Below are positions 1 to 31,162 of a stretch of 64,000 nucleotides of DNA, piece by piece. The translations under genes and the position numbers were made by a program. This DNA comes from Verrucomicrobiota bacterium (GTDB lineage: Bacteria; Verrucomicrobiota; Kiritimatiellia; CAIQIC01; JAGNIJ01): the NCBI GenBank assembly GCA_043803015.1, contig JAZDKK010000062.1, forward strand, positions 391 through 64,390, read 5' to 3'. A model generated the notes under the pieces. The model saw nothing but the letters and a program-made list of their open reading frames with translations. It was not told where the DNA came from and ran no database searches. Position 1 is the stretch's first letter, and each line of letters starts with the position of its first letter.

Positions 1-3000
1 TCGAAGGTCTTCCACTCCACCGTGCCGATCTCGCCCAGGAAGGCGGGTTTGTTGTACGCCTGGCGCAGGGTGCGGTGGTACTTCGAGACGGTCACGGGCG
101 GCGTGATCCAGTTGTACAGGTCGGCGTACGCGTGGATCTGCGGCACGTCCACGATCGGGAAGCCCTGGTCCCAGTACTCGTCCGTCGCATAGCTCGCCGT
201 CGTCGGATGGCCGAACGGGTCGTTGGTCTTGAAGTAGCTGTTGATGTACGTCAGCCACGGGATCGTGTAGTCGTTCCCGTCGCACTGGTTGGTGTCCATG
301 TTCAGGTAGGGGTTCTCGCCGAAGAGCGCGGACTTGTTGGTCACGTACAGCGGGTCCTGGTAGCGGATGCCGTTGGCCGAGTTGGCGAACGTGCCGAACA
401 TCTCGGAGACCAGCGCCCACACGCCGATCGCCTCGCTGTAGCCCCACCGCGCGATGATGTAGCGGTACAGCCGGTCCTGGTACTCCCGGTACGTCGAGTC
501 GTAGAAGAACTTCTGGTTCTTCGGCGGATCGTCCAGCTCGCTGAACGCGTTGACGTACCACTCCGGCTCGCTGAACTTGGTGCCGAACGCCTTGGCCCAG
601 CTCCCGTTCAGGCGCCACTTGTGGAAGTTGAAGTCGCGGATCGCGTCGTGCGGCCAGATCGTGAACGCCAGCTTCACGTTGTGCCGCTCGGCGTGGCCGA
701 GCACGCGGTCGACCTCGGCCGCGCGGTTCTGCTCGTACGTGTCGAACGACGACCGCTCGCGCCAGCTCTCCGTCGGGTCGGCGGGTTTGACGGTCAGCAA
801 GGTGTCCCACGGCGCCGACCACCAGTGGATCATGTTGATGCCGTGCTCCTCGCAGTTCGCGAAGAGGCCCTCGTCGTCGCCGTCCCAGGCGTGGCAGTAG
901 CCCCTGCCGAAGAACGGCGTATCGTCCGCGTGCTCGAAGTAGTGCGCGTCGTTGTCGGACACGCGGATCCAGCCGTGCCGGTCGCCGGCGACGCACGTGA
1001 AGTTCTGCACGGAGCTCGTGCTCGCGCCGAGGTGATTGCCCACGGTCACGCGGTAGCTCCACGAGCCGGCCTGGTTCGGCGCGAAGCGGATCCTCCACGT
1101 CCCGTTGCCCGGCGTGTCGCCCGGGCTTTCCATGTAGAAGCCGTTCACCTTGCACGCGGTGCCCGACGGCGAGGTGAACGTGGCGTTCAGGTCCACCATG
1201 TGCGGGTCGAACGGGTTCAGGCCCTGCACGTTGTTCAGGCCCACCGCCACCTCGTACTTCTGGTACCGGCCGACCGAGTTCGTCGCCGGCGTGATGGACG
1301 AGATCGAAGGCGCCGCCACCGGCCCCTTCGGCAGCACGTTGATCGAGTCGATCCCGACGCCCCCTTCCCAGATATCCCGGTTGGCCCAGACGATCTCCAG
1401 GCCCACTTCGTCGACATCCGTCAGGACCGCGGTCGGCAGGCCCGACAGGTCCCACGACAGCAGGTTCCACTGGCACGGCGTCAGGACGAATTCGGGGCTC
1501 ACGTGAGTGTAGACCCAGTTGTCCGAGGAGGAACGGACGTAGATCTTCACGCGGACCGCGTGGTGCGGGTTGGACGGCGCATCGCACGGCGCCCAGACGT
1601 AGGTCTGCAGGATCGGCCGGTAGAGGAGGTTCTCGTTCTCCACCAGGTCCCAGTCCTTCACGTAGAACTTGCCGTAGCCGGCGCCGTTGCTCGGCGTGAC
1701 CCACAACGCGCCCCCCGTCGGGTTGCCCAGGCCGTTCGTCCACTGGATCGTCGGCATGCCGAAGCTCCAGTCCTCACTCGTCCAGCTCTCCGTGTTCGTG
1801 CGGAACGAGTAGAGGTTCCTGCCCATCACGGGGAACGTGGCCGCGTCGATGTAGATCGGTCCGGTGTAGTCCGAGCCGGCGCCGCCGCGCTTGATGCGCG
1901 CGCCGATGGCGCGGATCTTCTGCGGGTTGAAGCCCGTGTCCGTCCAGACGCCCGGCCCGCCGTTCGTCAGGACGGTGAGCGTGAGCGTCATCCAGGAGTT
2001 CTCGACGATGTCGGACTCGCCGGCCCACTGCGCGAGCCATTGCGCGTCCTTCGCGTAGACCTGGACCTTGTTCGGGTTCGAGGTGCTGCCGCGGGAGCCG
2101 GTCGGACAGTACAGGCTGACCTGCAGCGGCTGGCCGTCGAGGTTGACCGGACCCTGGAGTCCCGCCGGCGGGTCGTACTCCATGTTCACCTCGGCGTCGC
2201 CGCGGTCGTACAGGTTGCTGCCGAAGATCTTCACCCACGCCTTCAGGCTGCTGTTGCTGTGGAGCGAGCGCTCCGTTGTGCGGACGACGCCCGTGATGCC
2301 GTAGCCGGCCCAGGACTGGTAGTTCGCGTACCAGCCTTCCAGCCCCGTCTCAAAGCTGTAGCGCATGTTGTCGAACGAGGTCCGCGTCACGGTCACGACG
2401 GCCTCCGCGCTGTCCGCGAGCCCGTCGTACGCCACGTACGAGAAGCTGTCCTCGCCGTTCCAGCCGAGCTGCGGCTTGTAGACCATGTTCGGCGGCGTGC
2501 CGAAGACCCAGCCGTGCTGCGGCTTCGTCTTGATCCGGTACGAGAGCGGGTCGCCGTTCGCGTCGGAGGCCACGAGCGTGAATGCCGTCGTATCGCCGTT
2601 CGGCTTGGCCACGATCCAGAGGTTGGACGCCACGGGGGCCGCGTTCGCCCGGTTCGTCGGGATGTTCCGCGCCGCCAGGCGGTCCGCATGCGCCTTGATC
2701 ACCGGGTTCACCGGGTCGTCCGCGTAGATCACGAACCCGTCGTCGCGCTTGATCTTCACGTTGTCCACGAAGACGTCGCCGTGGCCGGCCGGCAGGTCCT
2801 TGAACACGAGGGCAACCTGGCGGACGTCCTCCAGCACGTTGGAGGCCGGGCTCGGGATGTTGATCAGGTAGTTCGTCCTCGTGACGCCATTGCTGACCCA
2901 CACGTAGTGGCCGGCGCTCAGGTCGAACAGGACCCGGTTCCAGCCGGCCGTCAGGGCACTCGCCGCCCCTTCGCACCAGGTGAGGTCGGGGCCGCCGACC

Positions 3001-6000
3001 ACGGCGAGCGAAACCTTCAGCGTGTAGGCGTTCGGGTTGTAGAAGCTCCAGAAGAACTTGGTCCGGTTGATGCCGCGCGTCGGCGGGTCGTTCGTCAGGC
3101 TGTTGTCCACGCGCAGGACCCACGTCTCGTTGGTCGGGCACTTGAACAAGGCCTGGTTCGCGCCGTTCGTGCCGTACCAGGACATCTTCAGGGCGTTGGT
3201 CCCCTGAACGACGTGTTCGCCGGAGAGCACGATCGACGTCGCGCAGCCGCTGCCGGTTTCCGCGTACCACGGCGCCACCTGCTCGCCCGCGTGGAAGAAG
3301 TCTTCCCACATGCCCTGGAACCCGAAGTTCCAGAAGAAGGACCCGGAGATGCCCGAGTTCTCGATGTGGCCGTAGTACTGGCTGTAGATGTTCACCCGGT
3401 CCTGGAGCGTGTACTCCGGCGTGCGCGTGAGCTGCACCTGCCCGTAGGACCCGTTGAAGATCCAGCCGATGGCGTGGATGCCGAACTCCTCCAGGATCAT
3501 CGGCTTGCCGATCGTTTCGTGCGCGTCGTACCAATGATCGTTGATCCACTCGAAGCGTTGGTCAGCGCCGTTCTGGTTCGTGCGCCAGACGTTGTATTCC
3601 TTCTGGTCCACGTAGATGCGCGCGGTGCAGAAGTTGATGTTGGAATTGCCGGCCCGCCACTCCGAGTTGGTCGGCTGTTGGTTCGTGTAGAACCCGTCCT
3701 GCCACTGCACGAACGTGGCCAGCGTGTTGTTGTCGCTGAGAAAATCCACGCCGTGCCCGCGTCCGCACCCGTACAGGTCGCACGTCGAACTGCCGGTCCC
3801 GTACACCCCGTAGTGGTAGTAGTTGATCGGGTAATCTTCCCACGGGATCGTGTCGGCGAAGTCATACGTGTTGACGTAACCGCCCTCTTCGCCGTTCCCC
3901 AGGATGTGGTTGGCGTCGATCGTCCGCACCCAGTCGCTCTGGTCGTGCAGCCAGGTGTGGATCTTGCCGCCGCCGAAGTCCGACTCGCACCGCGGCTCGT
4001 TCACGATCTCCCACGCGAAGACCGTCGGGTCGTTCTTGTACACCACCCCCGTGATCGTGTTCGTCCGGTTCAACAGCTTCGTGACGTAGTCCCGGTACCA
4101 CTGCCGGCACCACTGGTTGGTCCAGAACTGGTCGTGGTACTCCACCCCCTCCTTGTTCAGGTTCGTGTTCACCGACTCCGGGTGCTCCCGGGTGGCCCAG
4201 TGGACGTACTGGAAGATGCCGCCGTTGTGCGCCCAGTTGTCGCAGAGGCCCAGCATCAGCCGGATGTTCCGGTGGCCCGCCTCCGCCACGATCCGGTCCA
4301 GGTGCTCGAACATCAGCTCGTTCCACACGCCGCGCTGCGGCTGGAAGCTGTAGGGTTTGCCTTCCTGCATCGCCCACGTGCGGATCACCTGCAGGTGGTT
4401 GCTCGACGCCCAGTCAAGGCACTGCCTCACGATCGCGTCGGGCTCGGTCTGCAGGTACTCGATGTTCGCGCCGCAGAAGTAGAAGTTCGTCCCGCCGACG
4501 ATGAACTTGGTCCCGTTGGGCTTCACGAACGCGCCCGCGAGCTTCACGTAATTGGTCCCGGTTTCCTTGCCGCCGACGACGAGGTCATCGATGAAGACCG
4601 CGCCGGTCCAGGCCGCGTTGGCGTAGACCTGGATGGCGACGAACCCGATCGCCTCGGTGTTCATCGGCCCCGCCGGCGAATTCGTCGCGTAGTCGAGCGG
4701 GTTGTCGAGGTCGAAGTCGAACGTGTTGTACCCGGCGCCGCCCGCGCCGAACTTCTTGAAGTACCACTGGTCCGTGATCTTGTCGTAGACATTGATCGAC
4801 ACCTCGAAGTTCAGCAGCCCCTCGACGGCCGGGTAGAAGCCGAGCCGGGCCTGGATCCTGCGGTGGTCCTTCGTGCTGAGGTTCAGGGCCGGCTGGTAGC
4901 CGATCTCGAACACGCCCTTGCGCAGGACGTCGTAGTTCGTCGTGACCACGCCATTGTTGGTGACCACCTCGTCCACGCCGAGCTGGAAGGCCGCGTTCGC
5001 GCCCAGCGCGACCGACCCGTTCACGCCCCAGTTGGTCCCGTAGTACACGCTGTTCCACGCCTTGGCGTGCCAACCCTCGGGGTTGGCGCCCCACTTCCAC
5101 CATGCCTGCTGGGAGTTGGCCTCCATGTCGTAGAGGTGCTGCGTGTTGTTCGTGATGGCCGGCGGCGGATCGCCCGGGAACATCACGGTGTCGGCGTAGA
5201 TCGGCCCCTGGTAGTTGCCGCCCATGGAATGGCGGTAGACGTTGATGCCGATGGAGATGATCTTGCGCGGGTTGAAGCCCGCGTTCGTCACCACCACCAG
5301 CGAAAGGGTCTGCGTGGTGGTGCCGAAGGGAATCGAGAGGTAGTTCGTCGCGTAGATCGAGTTCCAGTTCTCGTCCTTGGCGAACAGCTTGAGCTGGTGG
5401 TGAGCCCAGAGCTGGGAGTTGGTGCCGCTCGACCCCGCCGGGCACAGGACGCGCACCGTGACCGTCGCGCTGTTGAGGTCAACCGGGATCGGCGTCCGCG
5501 ACAGCGGCGGATAGTAGCGCATGTCCACCGACGATTCGCCCGTGTCCTGGCCCGCCGTGAGATTGCAGTCGATCTTCAGCGAGCGGTATCCCGTGTCCGC
5601 CCAGTTGGTGCTGTGCGAGGTGTTCGTCACCCCGCCCCAGGTGCCCCACCCTTCCTTGTTCGGCTCGAAGCCGTACTGCTCGTTGCCGTAACGGACGACC
5701 TCCCAGGTGCCCGTCGGGGCGGGATACGAAAACGCCACCACCCTGAACAGCGCGCTCGTCGAGATCGCGCTGTCTGCGTAGCCCGCCGCCCGCGCGAAGG
5801 CCCGCACGTTGTTGCTGTACGGCTGGAACAGCCCGATGCTGTTCCCGCTCGGGACCGACGGCGAATTCGTCGTCGGCGCCGTCCCGTTCGTCGCGTAGTA
5901 GATGGTCGAACCGGGGGTCGTCGAGCTCAAGGCCACGCTCACCGAGTTCGTAAACGTCCCGCCGTTCGGATTGTACGTCGGCGCCGCCGCCTGCGAAGAC

Positions 6001-9000
6001 GCCACCACCCTGAACAGCGTGCTCGTCGAGATCGCGCTGTCCGTGTAGCCCGCCGCGCGCGCAAAGGCCCTCACGTTGTTGCTGTACGGCTGGAACAGCC
6101 CGACGCTGTTCCCGCTGGGCACCGACGGCGAATTCGTCGTCGGCGCCGTCCCGTTGGTCGAGTAGTAGATCGTCGAGCCGGGAGTCGTCGAACTCAGCGT
6201 CACGCTGACCGAGTTCGTAAACGTCCCGCCGTTCGGGTTGTACGTCGGTGCCGCCGCCGGCGGATACGCGACCACCCTGAACAATGCGCTCGTCGAAATC
6301 GCGCTGTCCGTGTAGCCCGCCGCCCGTGCAAACGCCCTCACGTTGTTGCTGTAGGGCTGGACCAGTGCGATCGAATTGCCGCTCGGAATGGACGGCGAGT
6401 TCGTCGTCGGCGCCGTCCCGTTCGTCGCGTAGTAGATGGTCGAACCGGGGGTCGTCGAACTCAGCGTCACGCTCACCGAGTTCGTAAACGTCCCGCCGTT
6501 CGGGTTGTACGTCGGTGCCGCCGCCTGCGAAGACGCCGGCACGGGCAGGAGCTGGCCTCCGCCGCTCAGGTTGTACGTCTGGCTCTGCAGGTAGCTGTTG
6601 GAGGGGTGGTCGGACCGGTAGTAGACGTTCAGGGCCGAGGAGAGGTTCGTCACGCGGCCCGCGCTCCCGTCGAGGTCGAGCCAGGTCACGTAGAGCGCGG
6701 GCGACCCCACGCCCGGCGCCCCCTCGACCGTCAGCAGGGCGGGCGACCCGAGGTAGAGCCGGCCGAGCGCGAAGCTGTTGCTGTAGCCGGCCAGCGACTG
6801 GCCCAGGTTCGCCCCGGCCACCAGCATCGTGTGGACGCCGGAGCCGGTGAACCGCAAGGTCATGGTGTTGGCGCCGTAGTTCGCCGGGTTGGTGATCTGG
6901 CACGCGTAGTTGCCGTTCACGACCGTCACGGTGCCGCTCGGCGCAAAGAACCCGGCGCCGTTCCCCATCGCCACGCCGTTGGAGAACGTGGCCGAAACGT
7001 TGTTGCTGAACGTCACCTGCCCGGCATTCGTGGCGATCAGGCCCGCGCTGAACGTTGCGCCGTCGCGCACCGTCAGCCGGCCCAGCGAACCCACGTTCAG
7101 GGCGCCGACCTTCACGTACGTGCCCGCGCCCTGCGCATCCACCAGCCCGGCTCCGCCGCCGCCGTTGTATCCTATATAGGTCGTGCTGCCGTTGGTCTGC
7201 ACCCACTGCCCGCCCGCGGCCACGTTCACGATCCCCGTGCAGCCGGCCGAATAGCCCACGACCGACGAGTTGCCGTACGTGGCCGTCGACCCGTTCAGGA
7301 GCAGTTTGCCCTGCGAGGTATAGCCGATGTACTGCGCGCCGGCGAATTCCACGACCGAGTTCAACGCCGTGATCGTGCCGTCACCGCCGTAGCCGATGAG
7401 GGCCTGGGCGCCGTTGATCAGGCGCAGGCAGCTGTTCGAAAGGATGTATTTCGCCGTACTGCCGGCGGCACTGCCCATGTAGAGCGCCCCGCCCACCGTG
7501 GATGTGCTGGCGGAGAGTTGGACCTCTCCGTACGACCCGGCCGCCTGCGCCATGTACTGTCCCCCGTAGGCGAAGACCTGGGAATTCGACGCCGAGATGC
7601 TCCCGTAGCCGTAGTAGCCCAGGTAGTTCACGCCCCCGGTCACGATCAGCGTGCTGCCCGCCGCCAGGTTGTAGATTCCCGTGCTGGCCGCGCTGTTCCC
7701 CATCATGAGGGTGCTCCGAACGAGGTTGGTGCCGGCGTTCAGACGGATGGTGCCCACACCGTTCGAGCTGTTGCCGACATACGTCACCCCCGCGCTGATC
7801 AAAGCTGAATTCGAGATCCACACGGTGCCCTGCCCGGAGTTTCCAATGTACGTGTACCAACCGCTGTTGGTGGTCTCCAGCCGGCTCCCGTTCGCCAGGT
7901 TGACAACGCCCGTGCCGCCCGCGGCGACGTTCAGCTCCGCGCCGATGATGTTGGTCCCCGCGTTGAGGTCGAGCCGCCCGGAACTGCTAACGCCGTAGGA
8001 CACGAAAATCTTGCCGCCCGTGTTGAACAGCGAATTGGAGACGAACACATTCCCCTGGCCCCCGTCCTTCCCGATGTAATAGGTGCCCGGCCCCTCCAGC
8101 CGGCTGCCCTGCGCCAGAACGATCACCGCCGTACCGCCCCCGCCGTACCCGATGTATCCGCCCGACTGCACCGTGCCGGTCGAGGCGTACAGGCTCACCT
8201 GCCCGTGGCTGCGGCTGTTGAAGCCCACCTCGACATCCATGCACACGAGCGCCGAGTTGGTGACCACCAGGAAGCCGCGTCCCGCCGAGTTGCCGACGTA
8301 CACCGCCGCGCCCGTTATGCTCAGTAAGCTGTTCCCGGCCACCGTCACCATGCCCGTGCCGGCCCCGGACGCCCCAATCTGAAATGCGCTGCTCAGGATG
8401 CCCGTCGAGGCGTAAAAGTCCATCCGCCCGTAGCTGTTGCTCCCGCCGCCGGCCACCACCCCACCGCCCAGGCGCACCATGGAGTTCGAGACGATAACCA
8501 AGCCGCGCCCGGCGGAGCCGATGCTGAGGCTGGAGTAGTTGGTGGTCTCCAGCAGACTGCCCGAGGTCAGCGTGATGGTGCCTGTGCTTCCCGCGTAGTA
8601 GCCCACGTAGATCGGATCGCTGATCGTCTCCGTCGACGCAGCCAAGCTGAGCTGGCCCGCACTGCCCTCCGACTGCCCCACGTACTGGCGGCCCCCGATG
8701 TTCAGCGTCGCGCCGGTCGCCAGCAACGTGCCCCGGCCCATGTTGCCGACAGACATCCCGTCTCCGCCCGTGTTCGAGATGACCAGCAGGCTCCCCGCGC
8801 TCAGGGTCATGTCGCCCGTGCTGCCGCCGATGTAGCCGATCATGACAAACCAGCCGACCTGATTCGTCGAGCGGGAGAGCAGCAGACTTCCGTAGCTTCC
8901 ACTGTTGTAGCCGATGTACTCCCCCTGCGCGACGTTAATGCACGACGTGTACCAGTTGTGCCACGTCCTTTGTCCGTTGGTTTCGCCGACGTAGTAGTCG

Positions 9001-9164
9001 GTGTAGTTCGTCGTCACGTTGTACCACGAGCTCGTCTGGGCGAGCGCCCCGACGGCGAGGAGCCAGACCGAGAGTGCAAGAAGCCGCCCAACTGCGGGCG
9101 GCCGTTTCCGTTGCTTGAGGTGGAGATTCAGGTTCTGGGCGGCGCACGAGGCGCTCGTCTTCAT
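1..9164 (-). CDS. Giant secreted multidomain glycoside hydrolase, C-terminus cut by the window edge (at least 3054 aa). Domains in order: signal peptide, PATR-like beta-helical repeats, 3 CHB_HEX_C-like repeats, CBM-like modules, GH5 mannanase-like barrel, cadherin-like Ig domain, DUF5060-like domain plus a second clan GH-A barrel
   Basis: Own translation of the minus frame (codon starts = 2 mod 3). ATG 9164..9162 follows GGAGG (9175..9171) after a 6-nt spacer. The N-terminus MKTSASC...GRLLALSVWLLAVGALAQTSS is a signal peptide. No minus-strand ORF of this frame appears in the track between 1 and 9201, consistent with one open frame with no stop in the window. Hand-verified motifs: FAWEIVNEPRCE at 4019..3984 (GH5 acid/base), GKPMILEEFG at 3509..3480 (nucleophile), YCHAWDGDDEGLFANCEEHG at 899..840, FLGEIG at 41..24. 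The N-terminal third is made of G/S/T-rich repeats (for example GSLLVISNTGG, GTLLATGATLNIGG). Domain boundaries are approximate. Confidence 0.85.
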   Translation of the reverse strand, partial: MKTSASCAAQNLNLHLKQRKRPPAVGRLLALSVWLLAVGALAQTSSWYNVTTNYTDYYVGETNGQRTWHNWYTSCINVAQGEYIGYNSGSYGSLLLSRSTNQVGWFVMIGYIGGSTGDMTLSAGSLLVISNTGGDGMSVGNMGRGTLLATGATLNIGGRQYVGQSEGSAGQLSLAASTETISDPIYVGYYAGSTGTITLTSGSLLETTNYSSLSIGSAGRGLVIVSNSMVRLGGGVVAGGGSNSYGRMDFYASTGILSSAFQIGASGAGTGMVTVAGNSLLSITGAAVYVGNSAGRGFLVVTNSALVCMDVEVGFNSRSHGQVSLYASTGTVQSGGYIGYGGGGTAVIVLAQGSRLEGPGTYYIGKDGGQGNVFVSNSLFNTGGKIFVSYGVSSSGRLDLNAGTNIIGAELNVAAGGTGVVNLANGSRLETTNSGWYTYIGNSGQGTVWISNSALISAGVTYVGNSSNGVGTIRLNAGTNLVRSTLMMGNSAASTGIYNLAAGSTLIVTGGVNYLGYYGYGSISASNSQVFAYGGQYMAQAAGSYGEVQLSASTSTVGGALYMGSAAGSTAKYILSNSCLRLINGAQALIGYGGDGTITALNSVVEFAGAQYIGYTSQGKLLLNGSTATYGNSSVVGYSAGCTGIVNVAAGGQWVQTNGSTTYIGYNGGGGAGLVDAQGAGTYVKVGALNVGSLGRLTVRDGATFSAGLIATNAGQVTFSNNVSATFSNGVAMGNGAGFFAPSGTVTVVNGNYACQITNPANYGANTMTLRFTGSGVHTMLVAGANLGQSLAGYSNSFALGRLYLGSPALLTVEGAPGVGSPALYVTWLDLDGSAGRVTNLSSALNVYYRSDHPSNSYLQSQTYNLSGGGQLLPVPASSQAAAPTYNPNGGTFTNSVSVTLSSTTPGSTIYYATNGTAPTTNSPSIPSGNSIALVQPYSNNVRAFARAAGYTDSAISTSALFRVVAYPPAAAPTYNPNGGTFTNSVSVTLSSTTPGSTIYYSTNGTAPTTNSPSVPSGNSVGLFQPYSNNVRAFARAAGYTDSAISTSTLFRVVASSQAAAPTYNPNGGTFTNSVSVALSSTTPGSTIYYATNGTAPTTNSPSVPSGNSIGLFQPYSNNVRAFARAAGYADSAISTSALFRVVAFSYPAPTGTWEVVRYGNEQYGFEPNKEGWGTWGGVTNTSHSTNWADTGYRSLKIDCNLTAGQDTGESSVDMRYYPPLSRTPIPVDLNSATVTVRVLCPAGSSGTNSQLWAHHQLKLFAKDENWNSIYATNYLSIPFGTTTQTLSLVVVTNAGFNPRKIISIGINVYRHSMGGNYQGPIYADTVMFPGDPPPAITNNTQHLYDMEANSQQAWWKWGANPEGWHAKAWNSVYYGTNWGVNGSVALGANAAFQLGVDEVVTNNGVVTTNYDVLRKGVFEIGYQPALNLSTKDHRRIQARLGFYPAVEGLLNFEVSINVYDKITDQWYFKKFGAGGAGYNTFDFDLDNPLDYATNSPAGPMNTEAIGFVAIQVYANAAWTGAVFIDDLVVGGKETGTNYVKLAGAFVKPNGTKFIVGGTNFYFCGANIEYLQTEPDAIVRQCLDWASSNHLQVIRTWAMQEGKPYSFQPQRGVWNELMFEHLDRIVAEAGHRNIRLMLGLCDNWAHNGGIFQYVHWATREHPESVNTNLNKEGVEYHDQFWTNQWCRQWYRDYVTKLLNRTNTITGVVYKNDPTVFAWEIVNEPRCESDFGGGKIHTWLHDQSDWVRTIDANHILGNGEEGGYVNTYDFADTIPWEDYPINYYHYGVYGTGSSTCDLYGCGRGHGVDFLSDNNTLATFVQWQDGFYTNQQPTNSEWRAGNSNINFCTARIYVDQKEYNVWRTNQNGADQRFEWINDHWYDAHETIGKPMILEEFGIHAIGWIFNGSYGQVQLTRTPEYTLQDRVNIYSQYYGHIENSGISGSFFWNFGFQGMWEDFFHAGEQVAPWYAETGSGCATSIVLSGEHVVQGTNALKMSWYGTNGANQALFKCPTNETWVLRVDNSLTNDPPTRGINRTKFFWSFYNPNAYTLKVSLAVVGGPDLTWCEGAASALTAGWNRVLFDLSAGHYVWVSNGVTRTNYLINIPSPASNVLEDVRQVALVFKDLPAGHGDVFVDNVKIKRDDGFVIYADDPVNPVIKAHADRLAARNIPTNRANAAPVASNLWIVAKPNGDTTAFTLVASDANGDPLSYRIKTKPQHGWVFGTPPNMVYKPQLGWNGEDSFSYVAYDGLADSAEAVVTVTRTSFDNMRYSFETGLEGWYANYQSWAGYGITGVVRTTERSLHSNSSLKAWVKIFGSNLYDRGDAEVNMEYDPPAGLQGPVNLDGQPLQVSLYCPTGSRGSTSNPNKVQVYAKDAQWLAQWAGESDIVENSWMTLTLTVLTNGGPGVWTDTGFNPQKIRAIGARIKRGGAGSDYTGPIYIDAATFPVMGRNLYSFRTNTESWTSEDWSFGMPTIQWTNGLGNPTGGALWVTPSNGAGYGKFYVKDWDLVENENLLYRPILQTYVWAPCDAPSNPHHAVRVKIYVRSSSDNWVYTHVSPEFVLTPCQWNLLSWDLSGLPTAVLTDVDEVGLEIVWANRDIWEGGVGIDSINVLPKGPVAAPSISSITPATNSVGRYQKYEVAVGLNNVQGLNPFDPHMVDLNATFTSPSGTACKVNGFYMESPGDTPGNGTWRIRFAPNQAGSWSYRVTVGNHLGASTSSVQNFTCVAGDRHGWIRVSDNDAHYFEHADDTPFFGRGYCHAWDGDDEGLFANCEEHGINMIHWWSAPWDTLLTVKPADPTESWRERSSFDTYEQNRAAEVDRVLGHAERHNVKLAFTIWPHDAIRDFNFHKWRLNGSWAKAFGTKFSEPEWYVNAFSELDDPPKNQKFFYDSTYREYQDRLYRYIIARWGYSEAIGVWALVSEMFGTFANSANGIRYQDPLYVTNKSALFGENPYLNMDTNQCDGNDYTIPWLTYINSYFKTNDPFGHPTTASYATDEYWDQGFPIVDVPQIHAYADLYNWITPPVTVSKYHRTLRQAYNKPAFLGEIGTVEWKTF
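5735..6540 (-). repeat. Three tandem coding repeats, each about 268 bp (about 89 aa), inside the giant hydrolase gene; they resemble the chitobiase/hexosaminidase C-terminal domain
   Basis: Near-identical DNA blocks are visible. For example, ccaccaccctgaacagcg...gtcccgccgttcgg recurs near 5737, 6003 and 6268. The translated unit is AAAPTYNPNGGTFTNSVSVTLSSTTPGSTIYYATNGTAPTTNSPS(I/V)PSGNS..PYSNNVRAFARAAGYTDSAISTSALFRVV. Confidence 0.85.
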
Positions 9165-9210
9165 GGGCATCCTCCTTGAACAAACGACTTCGGACTTCCA
9201 AGCAGTGTGC

Positions 9211-9222
9211 TCAACCGGTTGA
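9211..9222. promoter_or_regulatory. Candidate LacI-type operator, perfect palindrome (C)TCAACCGGTTGA(G)
   Basis: gcTCAACCGGTTGAgt has a central CG. It lies 47 bp upstream of the giant hydrolase ATG (9164), in the divergent intergenic region shared with the LacI gene. Confidence 0.55.
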
Positions 9223-9260
9223 GTCACGCGCACAAAGAAAAACACTGACAACATAGGAGA

Positions 9261-9271
9261 TCAACCGGTTG
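9261..9271. promoter_or_regulatory. Candidate LacI-type operator, second copy (TCAACCGGTTG)
   Basis: agaTCAACCGGTTGcgc has the same core, 50 bp from copy 1. Confidence 0.5.
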
Positions 9272-9387
9272 CGCGCAGTAGAGCAAAAAAAGTGCTTTCC
9301 GTCAACCACAAAAAGGGGTATGAGTTACAATAGGCTGTAGACCAATGAGTTCCGTAACAGCTGTTGCGCGCAACAACCTCATAGGAC

Positions 9388-9399
9388 TCAACCGGTTGA
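9388..9399. promoter_or_regulatory. Candidate LacI-type operator, third copy (TCAACCGGTTGA)
   Basis: acTCAACCGGTTGAtg lies 20 bp upstream of the LacI ATG (9419), just before its GGAGG ribosome-binding site. This position fits autoregulation. Confidence 0.55.
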
Positions 9400-9418
9400 T
9401 GCAACTGGAGGCTTCCGT

Positions 9419-10447
9419 ATGAAGGTGACCATCAAGGATCTCGCCGCGGAGTTCGGCGTAGACAAGGCAACCGCTTCCCGCGCCCTGCGAGGCAAGCCCG
9501 GCGTCAGTTCGGAACTGCGCGACAGAATCGTCGCCGGAGCCAAGACCCTCGGCTTCTTCCCCAACGCGCAGGCGCGAAGTCTCGCCACAGGCAAGACGGA
9601 AACCCTCGCCCTCGTCTTCTGCGACGAGACCAGCTGGTTCTTCGAGAACCCCTTCTACTCCGGCGTCCTCGCGGGCATCGCGTCCGAGTCCAACGCCCGC
9701 GGGTTCACCCTGGCCTTCCACTCCCTCGCGTCGGCGAAGTTCCGGCCGGGAGATTCGCTGCCGAAGGAAATACGCGGACACCGGGCCGACGGCTTCCTCT
9801 TCGTCGGCGACCAGAACGACGCGCTCATCACGGCCGTTTCCGAGGCGCGATATCCCGTCGTGCTCGTGGATCACTCCGTGCCCGGCGCGGACCTCCCGGC
9901 GGTCACCGTGGCCAATACGAGCGGCGCGCGGTCGGCTGTCGAATACCTCATTTCACTGGGCCACCGACGAATCGGGTTCGTCAGCGGATGGCTGAAGAGC
10001 CCGAGCTATCGCGAACGATTGGCCGGTTACAAGGCGGCCTTGCAGGCCCACCGATGCGATCGCGATCCTTCCCTGGTTCGGACCCACGGGAAGGATGCGG
10101 GCTACGAGGGCATGCGTGAGCTGCTCGCTCTCCCTTCGCCGCCCACCGCGGTCTTCGCGGCCAACGATGTCCTCGCGGTCACCGCCGTCGCGGCCATCCA
10201 TCACAAGGGGCTGCGCATTCCTCAGGACGTCAGCATCATGGGGTTCGACGACTCGCGCTGTGCCACCGACACGTGGCCGCCGCTGACCACGATGCGTGTC
10301 GACAAGAGACTCATGGGACAGCTTGCCGTGCGCAAGCTCATCGGCTTGATCCAGCGCAAAGACGCCGGACCGCGTCAGACGCCTCTGGACGTCAACTTGG
10401 TGATCCGCGATTCCACGGGGCCCAACCTCACACGGCCCAACGCCTGA
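9419..10447 (+). CDS. LacI family transcriptional regulator
   Basis: The N-terminal HTH is MKVTIKDLAAEFGVDKATASRALRGKPGVSSELRDRIVAGAKTLGFFPNAQARSL. It is followed by a periplasmic-binding-protein-like sugar-binding core (342 aa). GGAGG lies upstream of the ATG. Confidence 0.92.
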   Translation: MKVTIKDLAAEFGVDKATASRALRGKPGVSSELRDRIVAGAKTLGFFPNAQARSLATGKTETLALVFCDETSWFFENPFYSGVLAGIASESNARGFTLAFHSLASAKFRPGDSLPKEIRGHRADGFLFVGDQNDALITAVSEARYPVVLVDHSVPGADLPAVTVANTSGARSAVEYLISLGHRRIGFVSGWLKSPSYRERLAGYKAALQAHRCDRDPSLVRTHGKDAGYEGMRELLALPSPPTAVFAANDVLAVTAVAAIHHKGLRIPQDVSIMGFDDSRCATDTWPPLTTMRVDKRLMGQLAVRKLIGLIQRKDAGPRQTPLDVNLVIRDSTGPNLTRPNA

Positions 10448-10625
10448 CGCGGATCGGGCTGGCCGCCTCTTGGTTGTGGACGCATTCATCGGCCCTTCAC
10501 CTCTCTCGGTAACCTCCGCGGTTCTTTCGCGGCCGGCCACAACGACCTCCAGCGCGCCTGCCGCAACTGCAACTTCCTCAAGGTCTGCCCGAAGTGGACG
10601 CGCCAGCGCCTTCGCCCTCCGGGCT

Positions 10626-10658
10626 TCCGCCGTCGCCGACGGCTTCGGCGGACAAGTC
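10626..10658. repeat. REP-like hairpin module (TCCGCC-N15-GGCGGA followed by CAAGTC), in inverted orientation
   Basis: The reverse complement reads gacttgTCCGCCgaagccgtcggcgacGGCGGAag. This matches the module gacttgTCCGCCgtagccttggcgaaGGCGGAag in the element at 11896..12010. A degenerate copy of the CCCCTCC region follows at about 10700..10725. Confidence 0.5.
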
Positions 10659-10733
10659 GGCGAGGCAGGCAAGATGCCCATGCGGAGAGCCTCCGGTCCC
10701 CGCGTCCTCCCTCTTTGGGGCTGATCACGGGAA

Positions 10734-10785
10734 CTTGACAATACTTCCACGTCGTACTTGACAATTACCTGACAATAAGTATTGT
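10734..10785 (+). promoter_or_regulatory. Upstream copy of a 40-bp module (CTTGACAAT-N14-CTTGACAAT-N2-CCTGAC), overlapping a putative TTGACA-N16-TATTGT promoter
   Basis: CTTGACAAT starts at 10734 and 10757 (23-bp spacing), and CCTGAC is at 10768. TTGACA (10758..10763) is 16 nt from TATTGT (10780..10785). Only 6 nt separate the -10 box from ATG 10792 and there is no Shine-Dalgarno sequence, so the mRNA may be leaderless. Confidence 0.45.
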
Positions 10786-10791
10786 GGCGAC

Positions 10792-11835
10792 ATGAAGGCC
10801 AGCCAATCGATTCTCGCCCGCCTCCGCCGGGGCCCCGCCAGCGGGTCCGGGCTGGCCCGGGCGCTTGGCGTGTCGCGCCAGGCCGTCCACGAACACCTGA
10901 AAGCGCTGTCCGGACACGGGCTGATCGTCAAGGAGGGGGTGACGCGCGGCGCCCGATACCGGATCGCCGGCCGAAGGGAGCAAGGAAGCGCCGTCCGCAC
11001 GGTCAGGCGGCTTCTCGATCTTCACGGCCTGGAAGAGGACCGCGTGTTCGACGAGATCAGCACGGCCCTGGGGCTGGCGCGCCGGACGGGGGAGCGCGCG
11101 CAGGAGATTGCCCAGTACGCCTTTTCGGAGCTGCTCAACAACGCCATCGAGCATTCGCGGTCGCCGAAGGGCCTGGTCGAGGCCCGACTCGACCCCTACG
11201 CCTGCTCCTTCGTGATCCGCGACTATGGAATCGGCGTATTCCAGTCCATGGCCGCGAAGTTCATGCTCCAGGATGAGAGCGCAGCGCTGTTCGAGATCCT
11301 GAAGGGCAAGCGGACCACGGCACCGGAGAGGCACAGCGGCGAGGGCATCTTCTTCACCTCCAAGGCGGTGGATCGCATCCTGTTTCGCTCCCACCGCCTC
11401 CGGCTGGAGATTGACAACCTGCACCCCGACGTCGTCGTCGAGGAGGCGCGTCTTCTCAAGGGCACCGAGGTCCGCTTCTTCGTGGCGCGACACGCAAGGC
11501 GGCGCCTGGGAGACGTCTTCGCGAAGTTCGCGCCGGAGGAATTCGACTTCCGCTTCGAGAAGACGCGCGTCCTGGTTCGCCTTCTCGGGAACGACTACGT
11601 ATCGCGCTCGGAAGCCCGGAGGCTCCTGGCCGGGCTGGACCGGTTCAAGGAGATCGAGCTCGATTTCGAGGGCGTGCAGCGACTGGGCCAGGGGTTTGCG
11701 GACGAGATCTTCCGCGTCTTCCGGCGCGCCCATCCGGGGATCGCCCTCCGCGCGGTCAACGTCCGCCCGCCGCTCCAGGCGATGATCCGGCACAGCCTTG
11801 ACAATACTGTTTCATCTAGCTTGACAATATCCTGA
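10792..11835 (+). CDS. Fusion protein: winged-HTH + GHKL/HATPase_c (RsbW/SpoIIAB-like) + C-terminal STAS-like DUF4325 domain
   Basis: HTH: ILARLRRGPASGSGLARALGVSRQAVHEHLKALSGHGLIVKEG. ATPase N-box ELLNNAIEHS, G1 box IRDYGIGV, G2 box HSGEGIFF. The C-terminus LDFEGVQRLGQGFADEIFRVFRRAHPG is typical of DUF4325. 347 aa. Confidence 0.8.
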   Translation: MKASQSILARLRRGPASGSGLARALGVSRQAVHEHLKALSGHGLIVKEGVTRGARYRIAGRREQGSAVRTVRRLLDLHGLEEDRVFDEISTALGLARRTGERAQEIAQYAFSELLNNAIEHSRSPKGLVEARLDPYACSFVIRDYGIGVFQSMAAKFMLQDESAALFEILKGKRTTAPERHSGEGIFFTSKAVDRILFRSHRLRLEIDNLHPDVVVEEARLLKGTEVRFFVARHARRRLGDVFAKFAPEEFDFRFEKTRVLVRLLGNDYVSRSEARRLLAGLDRFKEIELDFEGVQRLGQGFADEIFRVFRRAHPGIALRAVNVRPPLQAMIRHSLDNTVSSSLTIS

Positions 11836-11836
11836 C
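11797..11836 (+). repeat. Downstream copy of the 40-bp CTTGACAAT-N14-CTTGACAAT-N2-CCTGAC module
   Basis: CTTGACAAT starts at 11797 and 11820 (23-bp spacing) and CCTGAC is at 11831, the same internal spacing as the upstream copy. It overlaps the last codons and the stop of the 10792..11835 gene. Confidence 0.6.
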
Positions 11837-11895
11837 GAAATCGCCCGCCGCCGGCGCGATTTCCTTGAGGTGGACCTGAAGTGGACGCAGGGGTG

Positions 11896-12010
11896 ACCCA
11901 CCCCTCCCGTCCCCTCCGGGGAGCGGACGCCGATGTGCCGGTCCCCTCCCTCGGAGGGGTGCCCGACTTGTCCGCCGTAGCCTTGGCGAAGGCGGAAGGG
12001 CGGGGTGGGT
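11896..12010 (+). repeat. REP/MITE-like element, copy A (115 bp): 9-bp terminal inverted repeats ACCCACCCC / GGGGTGGGT, a CCCCTCC-N3-GGAGGGG hairpin, and a GTAG-containing hairpin module
   Basis: The 5' end acccacccctcccgtcccctccg is identical in copies A, B and C. Hairpin cccctccctcggagggg; module gacttgtccgccGTAGccttggcgaaggcgga; 3' end ggggtgggt. Confidence 0.8.
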
Positions 12011-12023
12011 AGAGAGGCACCGT

Positions 12024-12875
12024 ATGCGCATGAAGATCGTTCGAAGGTTCGCGCTCTTCGCGGCCGCCGCGGGCATCGCCCTGCTGACGGCAGGACACGC
12101 CGCGGCGCAGACGACGACGATCAGGGTCGCCCTCTGCCAGATCTTCTGCGTTGACGGCGACCGCGCCGGCAATTTCGTCCGGATGGAGAACGCCCTGGCC
12201 GAGGCCAGGCAGAAAGGCGCCGACCTCGCGTGCTTTCCCGAATGCGCCGTGCTGGGATGGGTCAATCCCGACGCCCACCGGCGCGCGTACCCGATCCCCG
12301 GCCCGGACTCGGATCGCCTGTGCGAGCTGGCAAAGAAATACCGGATGCATGTGTGCGCCGGATTGGACGAGAAGGACGGGACCAACCTGTACGACACCGC
12401 CGTGCTCATCAGCGACGAGGGCAAGCTCCTGCTCAAGCACCACAAGATGCACAACCTCGACAACGACCACCTGATCGAGCCGCCCTACACGTCGGGGCAC
12501 GACATCCGGGCCGTGGACACGAAGCTCGGCAGAATCGGCCTCCTGATCTGTGCCGACACGTTCATTGACGACTTCCTGAGAAAGATGGCGGATTTGAAAC
12601 CGGGCCTCGTCCTGGTTCCGTACGGCTGGGTCGGAGCGGAGAACGATTGGCCCGGCCACGGCCAGAATCTGGTCAACGTCGTCCGGCACGCAGCCGAGGT
12701 CATCGGCGCGCCGGTGGTCGGCACGGACTCCGTGGGGGAAGTCACGCACGGCCCGTGGGCGGGGCGCACCTACGGCGGCTTCAGCAACGTTTCAGACCGG
12801 CGCGGCCAGACCTTGGCGGTCGCCAAGGACCGGGACCGGGACGTCCTGATCGTCCCGATCGAGGTGGGGCGATAG
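12024..12875 (+). CDS. Carbon-nitrogen hydrolase (nitrilase superfamily) with an N-terminal signal peptide
   Basis: Signal MRMKIVRRFALFAAAAGIALLTAGHAAA. Glu-Lys-Cys triad contexts: ACFPECAV, LLLKHHKMH, GLLICADTF. 283 aa. The start could be ATG 12024 or 12030. Confidence 0.8.
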   Translation: MRMKIVRRFALFAAAAGIALLTAGHAAAQTTTIRVALCQIFCVDGDRAGNFVRMENALAEARQKGADLACFPECAVLGWVNPDAHRRAYPIPGPDSDRLCELAKKYRMHVCAGLDEKDGTNLYDTAVLISDEGKLLLKHHKMHNLDNDHLIEPPYTSGHDIRAVDTKLGRIGLLICADTFIDDFLRKMADLKPGLVLVPYGWVGAENDWPGHGQNLVNVVRHAAEVIGAPVVGTDSVGEVTHGPWAGRTYGGFSNVSDRRGQTLAVAKDRDRDVLIVPIEVGR

Positions 12876-12912
12876 CTGGCGCGAATAGCTGCAAGGGCGC
12901 GCCGGAAGCGGT

Positions 12913-12958
12913 GGATCGCGTTGCCCCCAACGCGATCCGCGCGATGAGGGCATCGCGC
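12913..12958 (+). terminator. Two consecutive GC-rich hairpins downstream of the nitrilase-family gene, followed by a T7 run at 12982..12988
   Basis: GGATCGCGTTG-cccc-CAACGCGATCC (12913..12938) and GCGCGATG-aggg-CATCGCGC (12939..12958). The T-run is not directly adjacent, so this is not a textbook intrinsic terminator. Confidence 0.35.
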
Positions 12959-12986
12959 GCCACCAAGCCCGCCCGGCCCCGTTTTT

Positions 12987-13032
12987 TTCCAAACGTTGGA
13001 AGTTTTCCCCGCCGATTTTCCAAGCCTTGGAA
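12987..13032. repeat. Pair of TTCCAA-N3-TTGGAA palindromes with starts 31 bp apart
   Basis: TTCCAAacgTTGGAA (12987..13001) and TTCCAAgccTTGGAA (13018..13032). The second extends to the 23-bp palindrome GATTTTCCAAgccTTGGAAAATC. The pair ends 10 bp from the stop of the 13042..14991 gene. Confidence 0.6.
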
Positions 13033-13041
13033 AATCGGGTC

Positions 13042-30764: not shown

Positions 30765-30863
30765 GGCCGGCTCCTCCCTCGCGTGCAGTTTCAGGACATC
30801 TAGGCTACGTCTCGTGCAGGCACCACGTTCGAACGAACTTGGCAGGACTATCACCCGCCGCTC

Positions 30864-31162
30864 GGGACCGTTCCCATCTTCACGCATTAAACACTTTGTT
30901 CCGTTTGAAGTCAATGCAAAACTGGTCACGTTCCCGGCCGTTTCCCAACCAAGGCCAGCCCGCCCAAAGAAATCGCCGCTTTCCTCAGCAAATAGCCCAT
31001 TTCACGAGCCAAACCGAATTCCCAACACCCCCCTCTGCACCCCCCAGATCGTGGCCGCCTAAGGCCCTGTGGCGGGACCGGTCCCCTCCATTCCATAATG
31101 ACAGAAATTACACTTGCGCCATTCTGGGACCGTGGTAGTATGAGAGGCGTGGGACCGTTCCC
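30864..31162. promoter_or_regulatory. Cluster of GGGACCG(T/G)TCCC near-palindromes in the 464-bp divergent intergenic region
   Basis: GGGACCGTTCCC at 30864..30875 and again at 31151..31162 (identical 12-mers). GGGACCGGTCCC at 31074..31085 is a perfect palindrome. A half-site GGGACCGTGG is at 31126..31135. The hairpin CCCGCGacggagCGCGGG is at about 31160..31177. Confidence 0.45.

Follow-up and report, generated by a model that had tools for sequence, protein, structure and literature searches.

The first 9.2 kb of the window, by which we mean the whole 64,000-nucleotide stretch analysed (positions 391-64390 of contig C62), carry on their minus strand the 5' part of a real gene. Its product is predicted from sequence to be a secreted multimodular enzyme degrading beta-mannan, encoded by a member of the Verrucomicrobiota, and we put the probability of this reading at about 0.8. 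The enzyme is a well-built and fairly ordinary polysaccharide degrader, and its novelty lies in the domain architecture. The features recorded are listed in Table 1.

The existence of the minus-strand gene is confirmed. Its frame was free of stop codons from position 9254 down to base 3 of the window, and the 390 further bases up to the contig end were also stop-free in the gene frame, giving 3,184 codons from ATG 9164. Since the frame is open through the contig end, it is the edge of the contig, rather than a stop or a frameshift, that cuts the gene. The public gene call for the contig is likewise 3,184 aa long (P0002). GC contents at the three codon positions were 0.54/0.49/0.94, and 36 homologues were found, ten of them full-length-like with 58-70% identity across aa 1533-3054. 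A preliminary description of this DNA had placed the gene on the minus strand, started it at ATG 9164 behind a ribosome-binding site and a signal peptide, and followed it open to the window edge over at least 3054 aa. All of this was borne out: a Shine-Dalgarno motif precedes the ATG, neither a stop nor a frameshift is present in the frame between 3 and 9164, and by inspection the N-terminus (MKTSAS...KQRKR...LLALSVWLLAVGALA, followed by QTSS) resembles a Sec signal, similar to that of the relative P0003 (MRTSRS...). The alternative start, ATG 9254, would add 30 codons down to 9165, in which GC3 is about 0.6 by our own count, versus 0.94 in the gene, and this stretch contains an operator palindrome. 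The true C-terminus was not recovered from the assembly or from public runs, where only 6-8% of the sampled words were present, pointing to relatives only. Three contigs were considered as continuations and rejected. C59, found by tblastn with the tails of relatives, is a paralogue fragment, since its overlap with the final 654 nt reaches an identity of just 79%. The gene on C71 is distinct and complete, at about 2,400 aa, and has a LacI of its own, and C9 carries a 1,447-aa paralogue.

Table 1. Features of the gene region, in window coordinates (aa, residues of the minus-strand product)
Feature	Position	Strand	Basis or remark
Giant gene, 5' part	1..9164	-	3,054 codons in window, 3,184 to contig end, stop-free
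Shine-Dalgarno motif AAGGAGG	9171..9177	-	6 nt 5' of ATG 9164; direct reading
Signal peptide, aa 1-42	9039..9164	-	Basic n-region KQRKR, hydrophobic LLALSVWLLAVGALA, inferred cleavage between ALA and QT; by inspection
N-terminal head, aa 43-870 (828 aa)	6555..9038	-	G/S/A/T/N-rich all-beta repeats; 25-aa coil, 75-aa super-repeat
Three tandem CHB_HEX_C / Fn3_assoc domains, aa 871-1146	5727..6554	-	PF13290 HMM, DNA repeat
Jelly-roll a, aa 1147-1332, Mann_GBD_bact-like, putatively carbohydrate-binding	5169..5726	-	HMM below cut-off; hhalign
Jelly-roll b, aa 1333-1532, first element of conserved core cassette	4569..5168	-	hhalign b with d, 76%
Module 1, aa 1533-1975, GH5 beta-mannanase (PF26410 GH5_mannosidase)	3240..4568	-	phmmer, precomputed Pfam
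Module 1 acid/base E1723 in VNEPRCE	3996-3998	-	
Module 1 nucleophile E1893 in ILEEFG	3486-3488	-	
Jelly-roll c, aa 1976-2140	2745..3239	-	hhalign c with e, 92%
Linker and Big_9 / cadherin-like Ig domain, aa 2141-2262	2379..2744	-	3.3e-13
Jelly-roll d, aa 2263-2447, Mann_GBD_bact-like	1824..2378	-	1.1e-4, 22.8 bits
Jelly-roll e, aa 2448-2612	1329..1823	-	hhalign
DUF5060 beta-sandwich, aa 2613-2725, N-terminal domain of module 2	990..1328	-	PF16586 HMM, model
Module 2 barrel, aa 2726-3125, ManDH5-type GH5 (beta/alpha)8	1..989	-	Model, Foldseek; last 71 aa outside window
Module 2 acid/base E2921 in ALVSEMFGT	402-404	-	
Module 2 nucleophile E3045 in FLGEIG	30-32	-	
Three palindromes (T)CAACCGGTTG(A), candidate operators	9211, 9261, 9388 (9211..9399)		Divergent intergenic region
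LacI-family regulator, 342 aa, divergent	9419..10447	+	LacI HTH 1.4e-9, Peripla_BP_3 5.4e-37
Antisense shadow ORF, 2,577 codons, not a gene	75..7808	+	GC pattern, composition, no Pfam

The first catalytic module matched 17 PDB entries in phmmer searches, all of them mannanases or mannosidases (E 1e-46 to 1e-14), including 9m20 (1.1e-46), 1rh9 (1e-43), 8gf3 (1.5e-43) and 3pz9 (2.5e-34), and the precomputed Pfam family for the protein is PF26410. Over beta1-beta4 the module is like the solved GH5 endo-beta-1,4-mannanases GmMAN19-1 from soybean (9m20), LeMAN4 from tomato (1rh9) and 3pz9 from Thermotoga petrophila, and the NEPR acid/base and E-F-G nucleophile motifs align as well. WEIVNEPRCE aligned with high posterior to WELMNEPRSQ of 9m20 and WELINEPRCP of 1rh9, the NEP lying at the end of beta4. 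PMILEEFG aligned with PIVVGEFG (9m20) and PLLIAEFG (1rh9) at the end of beta7, in a weak region of the alignment with a domain E of about 1-4; the ILEEFG-type motif is kept in all relatives. Unlike these mannanases, module 1 sits inside a giant multidomain protein and has about 75 residues between beta4 and beta6 that stay unaligned to the solved structures, while in the weakly aligned second half R-I-Y stands opposite the beta6 His-x-Tyr (H-L-Y) of the solved enzymes.

The second module begins with a DUF5060 domain (PF16586, 1.6e-16, 60.8 bits against a cut-off of 27.2), and residues 1-112 of its AlphaFold2 model (pLDDT 85.5, pTM 0.89) were all-beta. The top Foldseek matches of this model were all entries of ManDH5 (9gpa, 9gpe, 9gpg, 9gmj and 9gpc; E 1e-33 to 6e-33, probability 1.00, TMq 0.67-0.70 over approximately 530 columns), labelled "beta-D-mannanase of GH5 family" and including E303Q-mannotetraose complexes. 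ManDH5 (PDB 9gmj, 9gpa, 9gpc-g; released 2025) is a GH5 beta-D-mannanase from Dictyoglomus thermophilum. In both proteins a DUF5060 beta-sandwich at the N-terminus precedes a (beta/alpha)8 barrel. With phmmer the module matched 9gmj at 8e-15, placing E2921 opposite E303, which is the mutated position of the substrate complexes, and FLGEIG opposite LVGEFG, so that the GE(F/I)G nucleophile motif is shared. E2921 and E3045 were invariant in 72/72 homologues, as were R, N, H, Y and W residues. The differences are that ManDH5 is a stand-alone enzyme of about 565 aa, while module 2 is part of a giant protein with two low-confidence insertions relative to it (segment residues 240-245 and 320-348). 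The acid/base position reads SE instead of NE, but the idea that this marks an inactive module was rejected, as S, D or C is usual in the clade and the Glu is invariant.

Two separate clan GH-A modules had been proposed in the preliminary description, a GH5 mannanase-like one with NEPRCE and ILEEFG and a DUF5060-like domain with a second barrel ending in FLGEIG. The homology searches for GH5/GH-A returned matches (PF26410 and solved GH5 mannanases), the DUF5060 domain and the barrel were recovered by HMM and model, and the quoted motifs contain the catalytic glutamates. The second barrel had been left as a generic one; its place in GH-A stands, whereas by Foldseek it is of the ManDH5 type of GH5. 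Because of this assignment both modules are expected to target mannan-type substrates: both are mannanase-type, with specificity read from homology.

A bifunctional protein, in which module 1 is a mannanase and module 2 acts on another glycan (for example a side chain or some further beta-linked hemicellulose), so that two parts of one composite substrate would be attacked, appears rather unlikely. It would fit the low identity of module 2 to ManDH5 (20-22%), the residue before the acid/base Glu (S in module 2 and S/D/C in its clade, N in ManDH5), and the further structural neighbours, namely 4n0r, an uncharacterised Bacteroides protein, and then GH2 glucuronidases. The DUF5060 family is also very large and diverse (2,859 representative clusters) and annotated as DUF5060 alone. 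However, its sole characterised or solved member is ManDH5, a beta-mannanase with manno-oligosaccharide complexes, the next GH5 neighbours of module 2 are classic GH5 mannanases and mannosidases, and the cassette has Mann_GBD-like modules in a protein whose examined relative lies in a GH130/GH5_mannosidase neighbourhood. In the literature that could be searched, no publication was found on enzymes with DUF5060 or on ManDH5.

Four non-catalytic modules lie between the two catalytic ones. Jelly-roll a matched Mann_GBD_bact at 5.9e-5 and 23.7 bits, under the 27-bit cut-off, and was aligned to jelly-roll d by hhalign with 99.8%. Three of the five jelly-rolls had no family match, and a sequence search of the jelly-roll modules against solved structures found nothing. 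We assume the jelly-rolls to be carbohydrate-binding.

The preliminary description had called a secreted enzyme with two catalytic modules of this size unusual. This was overstated, as the core with its two modules forms a conserved cassette, with nine domains that were collinear in at least ten giant proteins of Verrucomicrobiota MAGs. The giant "DUF5060 domain-containing proteins" P0003-P0011 (Verrucomicrobiota, Spartobacteria and Kiritimatiellae MAGs, for example RZZM01000144.1 and DAISJM010000037.1) share all nine domains of the core and their order, with 58-70% identity to the present core over 1,522 aa. P0003-P0011 are complete, with a tail of approximately 1,000 aa, whereas the present copy is truncated by its contig; relatives reach 997-1,010 aa beyond its last residue. 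They begin with extra jelly-rolls and have no head of beta-helix and CHB_HEX_C. One locus around a relative's giant gene was examined, that of P0003, and there the orthologous giant was accompanied by GH130, a DUF5060+Cellulase+CBM9 gene, another GH5_mannosidase and a LacI-type gene. The present 2.15-Mb partial genome has two GH130 genes and about ten genes of at least 2,000 aa. An uncharacterised family of 3,000-3,600-aa enzymes of environmental Verrucomicrobiota is thereby defined, in which the order of domains is fixed and two distinct GH5 mannanase lineages are joined. Together with the ManDH5 structure, the cassette gives a concrete functional context to the DUF5060 family (about 2,900 representative clusters), while the present understanding of CAZymes is not overturned. 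Relatives were also seen in groundwater and wetland metagenomes.

The part in front of the core is of a different character. Autocorrelation of the head gave peaks at 25, 50, 75 and 100 residues, and a single-sequence AlphaFold2 model was all-beta with strand triplets, at low confidence (pLDDT 47). The best Foldseek matches of this model were all beta-helices, TibA (6.6e-4), Ag43 and pertactin, and were weak (TM at most 0.38). The head is probably a right-handed beta-helix of adhesin or passenger type, as judged from the model. It had been described as about 850 aa of PATR-like beta-helix repeats, and of this a beta-solenoid-like character is probable, while the family name has to be dropped: aa 43-870 gave no Pfam match at E<=1, PF12951 (PATR) included, and no PDB sequence match, and PATR was absent from the whole protein at E<=0.01. 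The T5SS/PEP-CTERM-associated repeat TIGR04393 matched in 2 stretches with E 0.004 and 17.1 bits, under the cut-off of 23. The three CHB_HEX_C repeats reported behind the head are well founded, both by HMM (PF13290 in three stretches, 4.6e-32, 110 bits against a cut-off of 22) and by the DNA, a 267-bp tandem repeat in three copies with 89% identity. Relatives of the head were sought in several ways. The genome holds no paralogue, a word-indexed search gave only matches driven by CHB_HEX_C plus one weak relative (P0089), a pattern scan across 185,579 species' genomes gave none, and in 60 related genomes searched in six frames there were only three matches, weak and partial. The combination of beta-helix and CHB_HEX_C head is thus unique to the present copy among the relatives compared.

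This singularity would also be expected if two genes, one for the head (aa 1-1146) and one for the core with both mannanases, had been misjoined in a metagenome-assembled contig, and the junction does adjoin the 267-bp repeats in a fragmented assembly of 84 contigs that is 66% complete. Nevertheless, neither the frame nor the strand changes at the junction, GC3 and codon usage run on across it, and the 9.5 kb are stop-free. The repeats, being only 89% identical, can be assembled, module a behind them is a normal N-terminal element of relatives (P0004 and P0006), and contamination of the assembly is 0.04%. We consider such a chimera very improbable.

As a single secreted beta-mannan-degrading protein, the product would be exported by its Sec signal peptide, and the beta-solenoid head with the three Ig-like CHB_HEX_C domains would probably form a stalk, an adhesin or a spacer. 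The core would follow in the order jelly-roll b, GH5 mannanase, jelly-roll c, Big_9, jelly-rolls d and e, DUF5060, ManDH5-type barrel and a further jelly-roll. One chain would thus carry a pair of unlike retaining GH5 beta-mannanase modules, with the clan GH-A glutamate pairs E1723/E1893 and E2921/E3045 and with putative mannan-binding modules between them. Acting on the same polymer, the two lineages may show proximity synergy, for example by differing side-chain tolerance or differing endo/exo modes, and if they do, the cassette would offer hemicellulase engineering a natural template. The products would pass to the GH130 phosphorylases encoded elsewhere in the genome. Judging by the relatives, this copy probably lacks about 1,000 residues at its C-terminus, and this tail would end in a TSP3-like region and a domain of about 90 aa common to many secreted proteins here.

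A more far-reaching interpretation is doubtful. The cassette might be a single-chain "mannanosome" of a few Verrucomicrobiota lineages, fused here to an adhesin-like head serving as surface or particle adhesin. A plant-type GH5 endo-mannanase and a ManDH5-type GH5 would then, though we hold this to be improbable, work in obligate intramolecular synergy. Equally speculative is a head that self-associates like autotransporter passengers, with display through the TSP3-plus-CTD tail of the lineage; if true, TSP3-plus-CTD sorting would be a secretion or anchoring route so far undescribed.

Among known systems, the multimodular glycoside hydrolases of Caldicellulosiruptor likewise have two GH domains on one secreted chain with non-catalytic, binding-type modules between them, and intramolecular synergy is the benefit proposed for both. 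The present protein, with at least 3,184 aa and probably about 4,200, has approximately double the length. Both of its catalytic domains are of GH5 mannanase type, whereas the Caldicellulosiruptor type combines two different families. Its spacers are Mann_GBD-like jelly-rolls and Big_9 instead of CBM3, and it has a probable beta-solenoid head. The hosts are a diderm Verrucomicrobiota bacterium and a thermophilic Firmicute, respectively, and, in contrast to the Caldicellulosiruptor type, the present enzyme is known from sequence and models alone.

The gene shares its upstream intergenic region with a divergent gene for a LacI-family protein. The palindrome CAACCGGTTG was found in only 3 copies in the 2.15-Mb assembly, 3/3 of them in this region, and a scan of the region for sigma-70-like promoters found none. 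The LacI-family protein probably represses the giant gene via the three candidate operators, and repression would presumably be relieved by a sugar ligand.

On the opposite strand, the long ORF had been taken for an antisense shadow of the gene, and our analyses agree. It is the exact codon-on-codon antisense frame of the minus-strand gene, its GC pattern is inverted (0.95/0.48/0.54), its translation is rich in V (18.6%), R (18.4%) and A (12.5%), together 49.5%, and it gave 0 Pfam families. The ORF is a compositional shadow of a gene almost without TTA, CTA and TCA, of which only 2 were found in 3,184 codons. Genome-average codon usage predicts 9-10 antisense stops (probability of none about 4e-5 to 8e-5), while at the rate of the GC3>=0.93 genes of this genome about 3.2 are expected (about 0.04), and the idea that the shadow is statistically remarkable was dropped once it was conditioned on the GC3 class. 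That the plus-strand ORF is the true gene, or a second overlapping one, is effectively already refuted: its 2,577 stop-free codons with a GTG start, and the stops predicted from genome-average usage, are set against the inverted composition, the lack of Pfam matches, the exact antisense register to a gene with strong homologues, and the equally long shadows of other giant high-GC3 genes. ORF tracks that drop open-ended frames can thus lose the largest gene of a window and show its antisense shadow instead, an effect that occurs beneath several giant genes here. Such shadows are common beneath the giant genes of this genome, two others measuring 2,409 and 2,369 codons.

When ORFs with open ends are listed too, the minus strand shows a frame without a stop between 9254 and base 3 of the window; opposite to it, on the plus strand, lies the ORF 75..7808. 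The source assembly consists of 84 contigs and 2.15 Mb, the window being positions 391-64390 of contig C62. From ATG 9164 the giant gene comprises 3,184 codons, including the 390 bases between the window and the contig end. The preliminary description had placed the real gene on the minus strand and open to the window edge, and no stop was found in this frame, neither in the window nor in the remaining 390 bases; the gene is thus truncated by the assembly and not by mutation. The public gene call for the contig, P0002, is likewise 3,184 aa. The proposed start was retained as the best one, since the 30 in-frame codons upstream (9254-9165) have a GC3 of ~0.6 and overlap an operator-like palindrome. 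The ribosome-binding site is AAGGAGG, 6 nt upstream of the ATG. The N-terminus, with a basic stretch, hydrophobic LLALSVWLLAVGALA and then QTSS, resembles that of the giant relative P0003 and on inspection is built like a Sec signal peptide, as had been predicted.

The minus strand is the coding one. GC at codon positions 1/2/3 was 0.54/0.49/0.94 in the minus frame versus 0.95/0.48/0.54 in the plus ORF. The 2,577-codon ORF, previously read as an antisense shadow, is indeed the exact codon-on-codon antisense frame of the giant gene; its translation is rich in V (18.6%), R (18.4%) and A (12.5%) and matched no Pfam family. A stop in it requires sense TTA, CTA or TCA, of which the giant gene has two in 3,184 codons. 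With genome-average codon usage 9-10 antisense stops would be expected (P0 ~4e-5 to 8e-5), and the shadow would then appear as an improbable feature, but this was dropped, as the three codons make up 1.24 per 1,000 in the genome's genes of GC3>=0.93, giving ~3.2 expected stops and P0 ~0.04. Because, in addition, other giant genes in the same genome cover shadows of 2,409 and 2,369 codons, the plus ORF is a by-product of base composition rather than a feature in its own right. The whole assembly (2.15 Mb, 66% complete) holds ~10 genes of at least 2,000 aa, most with GC3 0.89-0.95 and each lying over an antisense shadow 800-2,700 codons long. ORF tracks made for it will be systematically misleading.

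Features of the giant gene, its protein and the surrounding region (aa numbering from M1 = 9164)
Feature	Position	Strand	Basis or remark
Predicted signal peptide	aa 1-42		by inspection
Head	aa 43-870		G/S/A/T/N-rich, repeat period
CHB_HEX_C x3	aa 871-1146		4.6e-32
Module 1	aa 1533-1975		GH5 mannanase homology
Big_9 Ig domain	within aa 2141-2262		Pfam match
Module 2	aa 2613-3125		DUF5060 1.6e-16, then barrel
Palindrome sites with CAACCGGTTG core	9211, 9261, 9388 (window 9211-9399)		between giant gene and LacI gene
LacI-family gene	9419-10447	+	divergent from giant gene
TSP3-like C-terminal module	C62, window ~13050-13340 and 15120-15410		tblastn
TSP3-like C-terminal module	C71, C77, C64, C31, C23, C26, C56, C11, C51, C47, C7		tblastn

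Both catalytic modules are of GH5 mannanase type. Module 1, already described as mannanase-like, has 17 matches among solved structures, all of them GH5 mannanases or mannosidases (best 1.1e-46), and is annotated in precomputed data as GH5_mannosidase, PF26410. The acid/base motif is matched by VNEPRCE (E1723) and the nucleophile motif by ILEEFG (E1893). Between beta4 and beta6, ~75 residues have no counterpart in the alignment to solved mannanases, and in the weakly aligned second half of the module the beta6 'HxY' reads 'RIY'. The Arg in the His position (TARIY, aa 1847-1851, window 3612-3626) occurs in the giant protein and all close relatives seen; it reflects either misalignment or a real active-site difference.

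The second barrel, earlier described as a clan GH-A fold behind a DUF5060-like domain, could be specified further by its match to the mannanase ManDH5. By sequence, module 2 matched PDB 9gmj at 8e-15, with ALVSE aligned to WEFWNE, ending at E303, and FLGEIG to LVGEFG. Across 72 aligned, diverse homologues E2921 and E3045 were invariant, as were a single R, N, H, Q and Y and two W; most of the homologues have S, D or C just before the acid/base Glu, and 'SE' is therefore nothing unusual. Their alignment yielded a confident AlphaFold model (pLDDT 85.5, pTM 0.89), in which a beta-sandwich precedes alternating beta/alpha units. Foldseek placed ManDH5 first (E 1e-33, TMq 0.69), followed by the uncharacterised BVU_0362 and then GH2 glucuronidases and classic GH5 mannanases. 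PDB titles name ManDH5 'a beta-D-mannanase of GH5 family from Dictyoglomus', and E303Q-mannotetraose complexes are among its entries; mannan specificity of module 2 is suggested by this homologue at ~21% identity.

The head shows autocorrelation peaks at 25, 50, 75 and 100 residues, the one at 75 being strongest. Neither Pfam (E<=1) nor the sequences of the PDB (E<=5) gave a match to it, and its score against TIGR04393 was 17 bits, below the cut-off of 23. A single-sequence AlphaFold model of low confidence (pLDDT 47) was all beta with strand triplets every ~25 residues, and its best Foldseek matches, weak in score, were right-handed beta-helices throughout: passenger domains (TibA, Ag43, pertactin), then lyases and GH28. 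The head is probably a non-catalytic beta-solenoid. The three CHB_HEX_C repeats noted before were recovered; they are encoded by a 267-bp x3 tandem repeat of 89% identity. Five jelly-roll modules (a-e) of ~165-200 aa and the start of a sixth were found, a and d falling just under the Mann_GBD_bact threshold. Profile-profile comparison linked a with d (99.8%), c with e (92%) and b with d (76%), while sequence search found no solved relative for any of them.

At least ten proteins of 3,046-3,619 aa share 58-70% identity over the whole of residues 1533-3054. Segment mapping showed the order b-GH5-c-Big_9-d-e-DUF5060-barrel-tail to be strictly collinear in all ten giant relatives, and each half of the cassette alone in other proteins. 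The hosts that are named are MAGs of Verrucomicrobiota, Spartobacteria and Kiritimatiellae. In 60 related genomes, the fused form was confined to two members of the same family, one of them carrying two copies on one contig (C17); split forms occurred in four genomes of that same family. Separate halves exist within the window's own assembly as well, the GH5 half on C29 and the DUF5060 half on C9 and C59. The relatives run 997-1,010 aa beyond the last residue of the giant protein, which would therefore probably be ~4,200 aa in full.

The head and the CHB_HEX_C repeats behind it are absent from all giant relatives. The sole database relative of the head is P0089, a secreted repeat protein of 1,722 aa whose C-terminal domain is of the kind found in the giant relatives. 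The head could thus have been joined to the core as a chimera, but this is very unlikely, since frame, strand and codon usage run on continuously across both and contamination of the assembly is 0.04%. With the protein taken as one continuous product, the architecture is new, in that proteins of >3,000 aa unite two lineages of GH5 mannanase within a nine-domain cassette of fixed order, and the putative beta-solenoid head on this cassette is unique to the giant protein. The family is uncharacterised and deserves a biochemical look, although it would not surprise a CAZyme specialist.

Contig C59 (2,249 bp, open at both ends) holds a fragment of a second gene of dual-cassette type; its DNA is 79% identical to the last 654 nt of the giant gene and its protein 80% identical to the P0003 tail. 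It may be a neighbouring paralogue, comparable to the two copies on one contig in genome G009. The C-terminal module of the relatives consists of a TSP3-like Asp-rich stretch and ~90 aa ending ...YYRVEVE. In the assembly, at least 12 ORFs, spread over 12 contigs, end with it by tblastn, and P0089 has it too; it is a candidate domain for sorting or anchoring specific to this lineage. P0004, P0006, P0008 and P0010 have, ~650-700 aa ahead of the C-terminus, the motif QSN(Y/F)TG(A/V)A.C.WM...YL.G, resembling the Gln/Cys region of C39-like or papain-like peptidases; the Cys is missing in P0003, and Pfam gave no match in this region of the tails.

Of the 10-mer CAACCGGTTG, the palindrome core, the entire 2.15-Mb assembly contains three copies, and each of them falls within the 254-bp intergenic region shared with the divergent LacI-family gene. 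The three palindromes look like a private operator set, and this arrangement speaks for a repressor-operator pair dedicated to control of the giant gene. A scan of the intergenic region for a sigma-70-type promoter found none. In one relative, P0003, the giant gene is accompanied by GH130, a DUF5060+Cellulase+CBM9 protein, a further GH5_mannosidase protein and a LacI-type regulator, which together form a gene set for mannan utilisation. The window's genome has two GH130 genes, and the window is rich in further CAZymes: GH13, a giant GH42-like protein and two GH35.

Derepressed by manno-oligosaccharide, the protein would be exported by Sec, the head and Ig domains serving as stalk or adhesin and the missing C-terminal tail mediating surface display. 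The jelly-rolls would bind mannan, so that two retaining GH5 mannanases of different lineages could work in proximity on the same polymer and pass their products to GH130 phosphorylases.

A second giant gene is located at 21270-30929 (-), over a 2,369-codon shadow ORF; its product (~3,200 aa) combines a GH42-like barrel at the N-terminus with three InhA-like MAM domains and one domain resembling 3-keto-disaccharide hydrolase. The layout of the LacI-family gene and the giant gene recurs on C71, where a LacI-family gene (4742-5770, -) is divergent from a giant gene (5938-13227, +) for a secreted protein of ~2,400 aa ending in the shared C-terminal domain.
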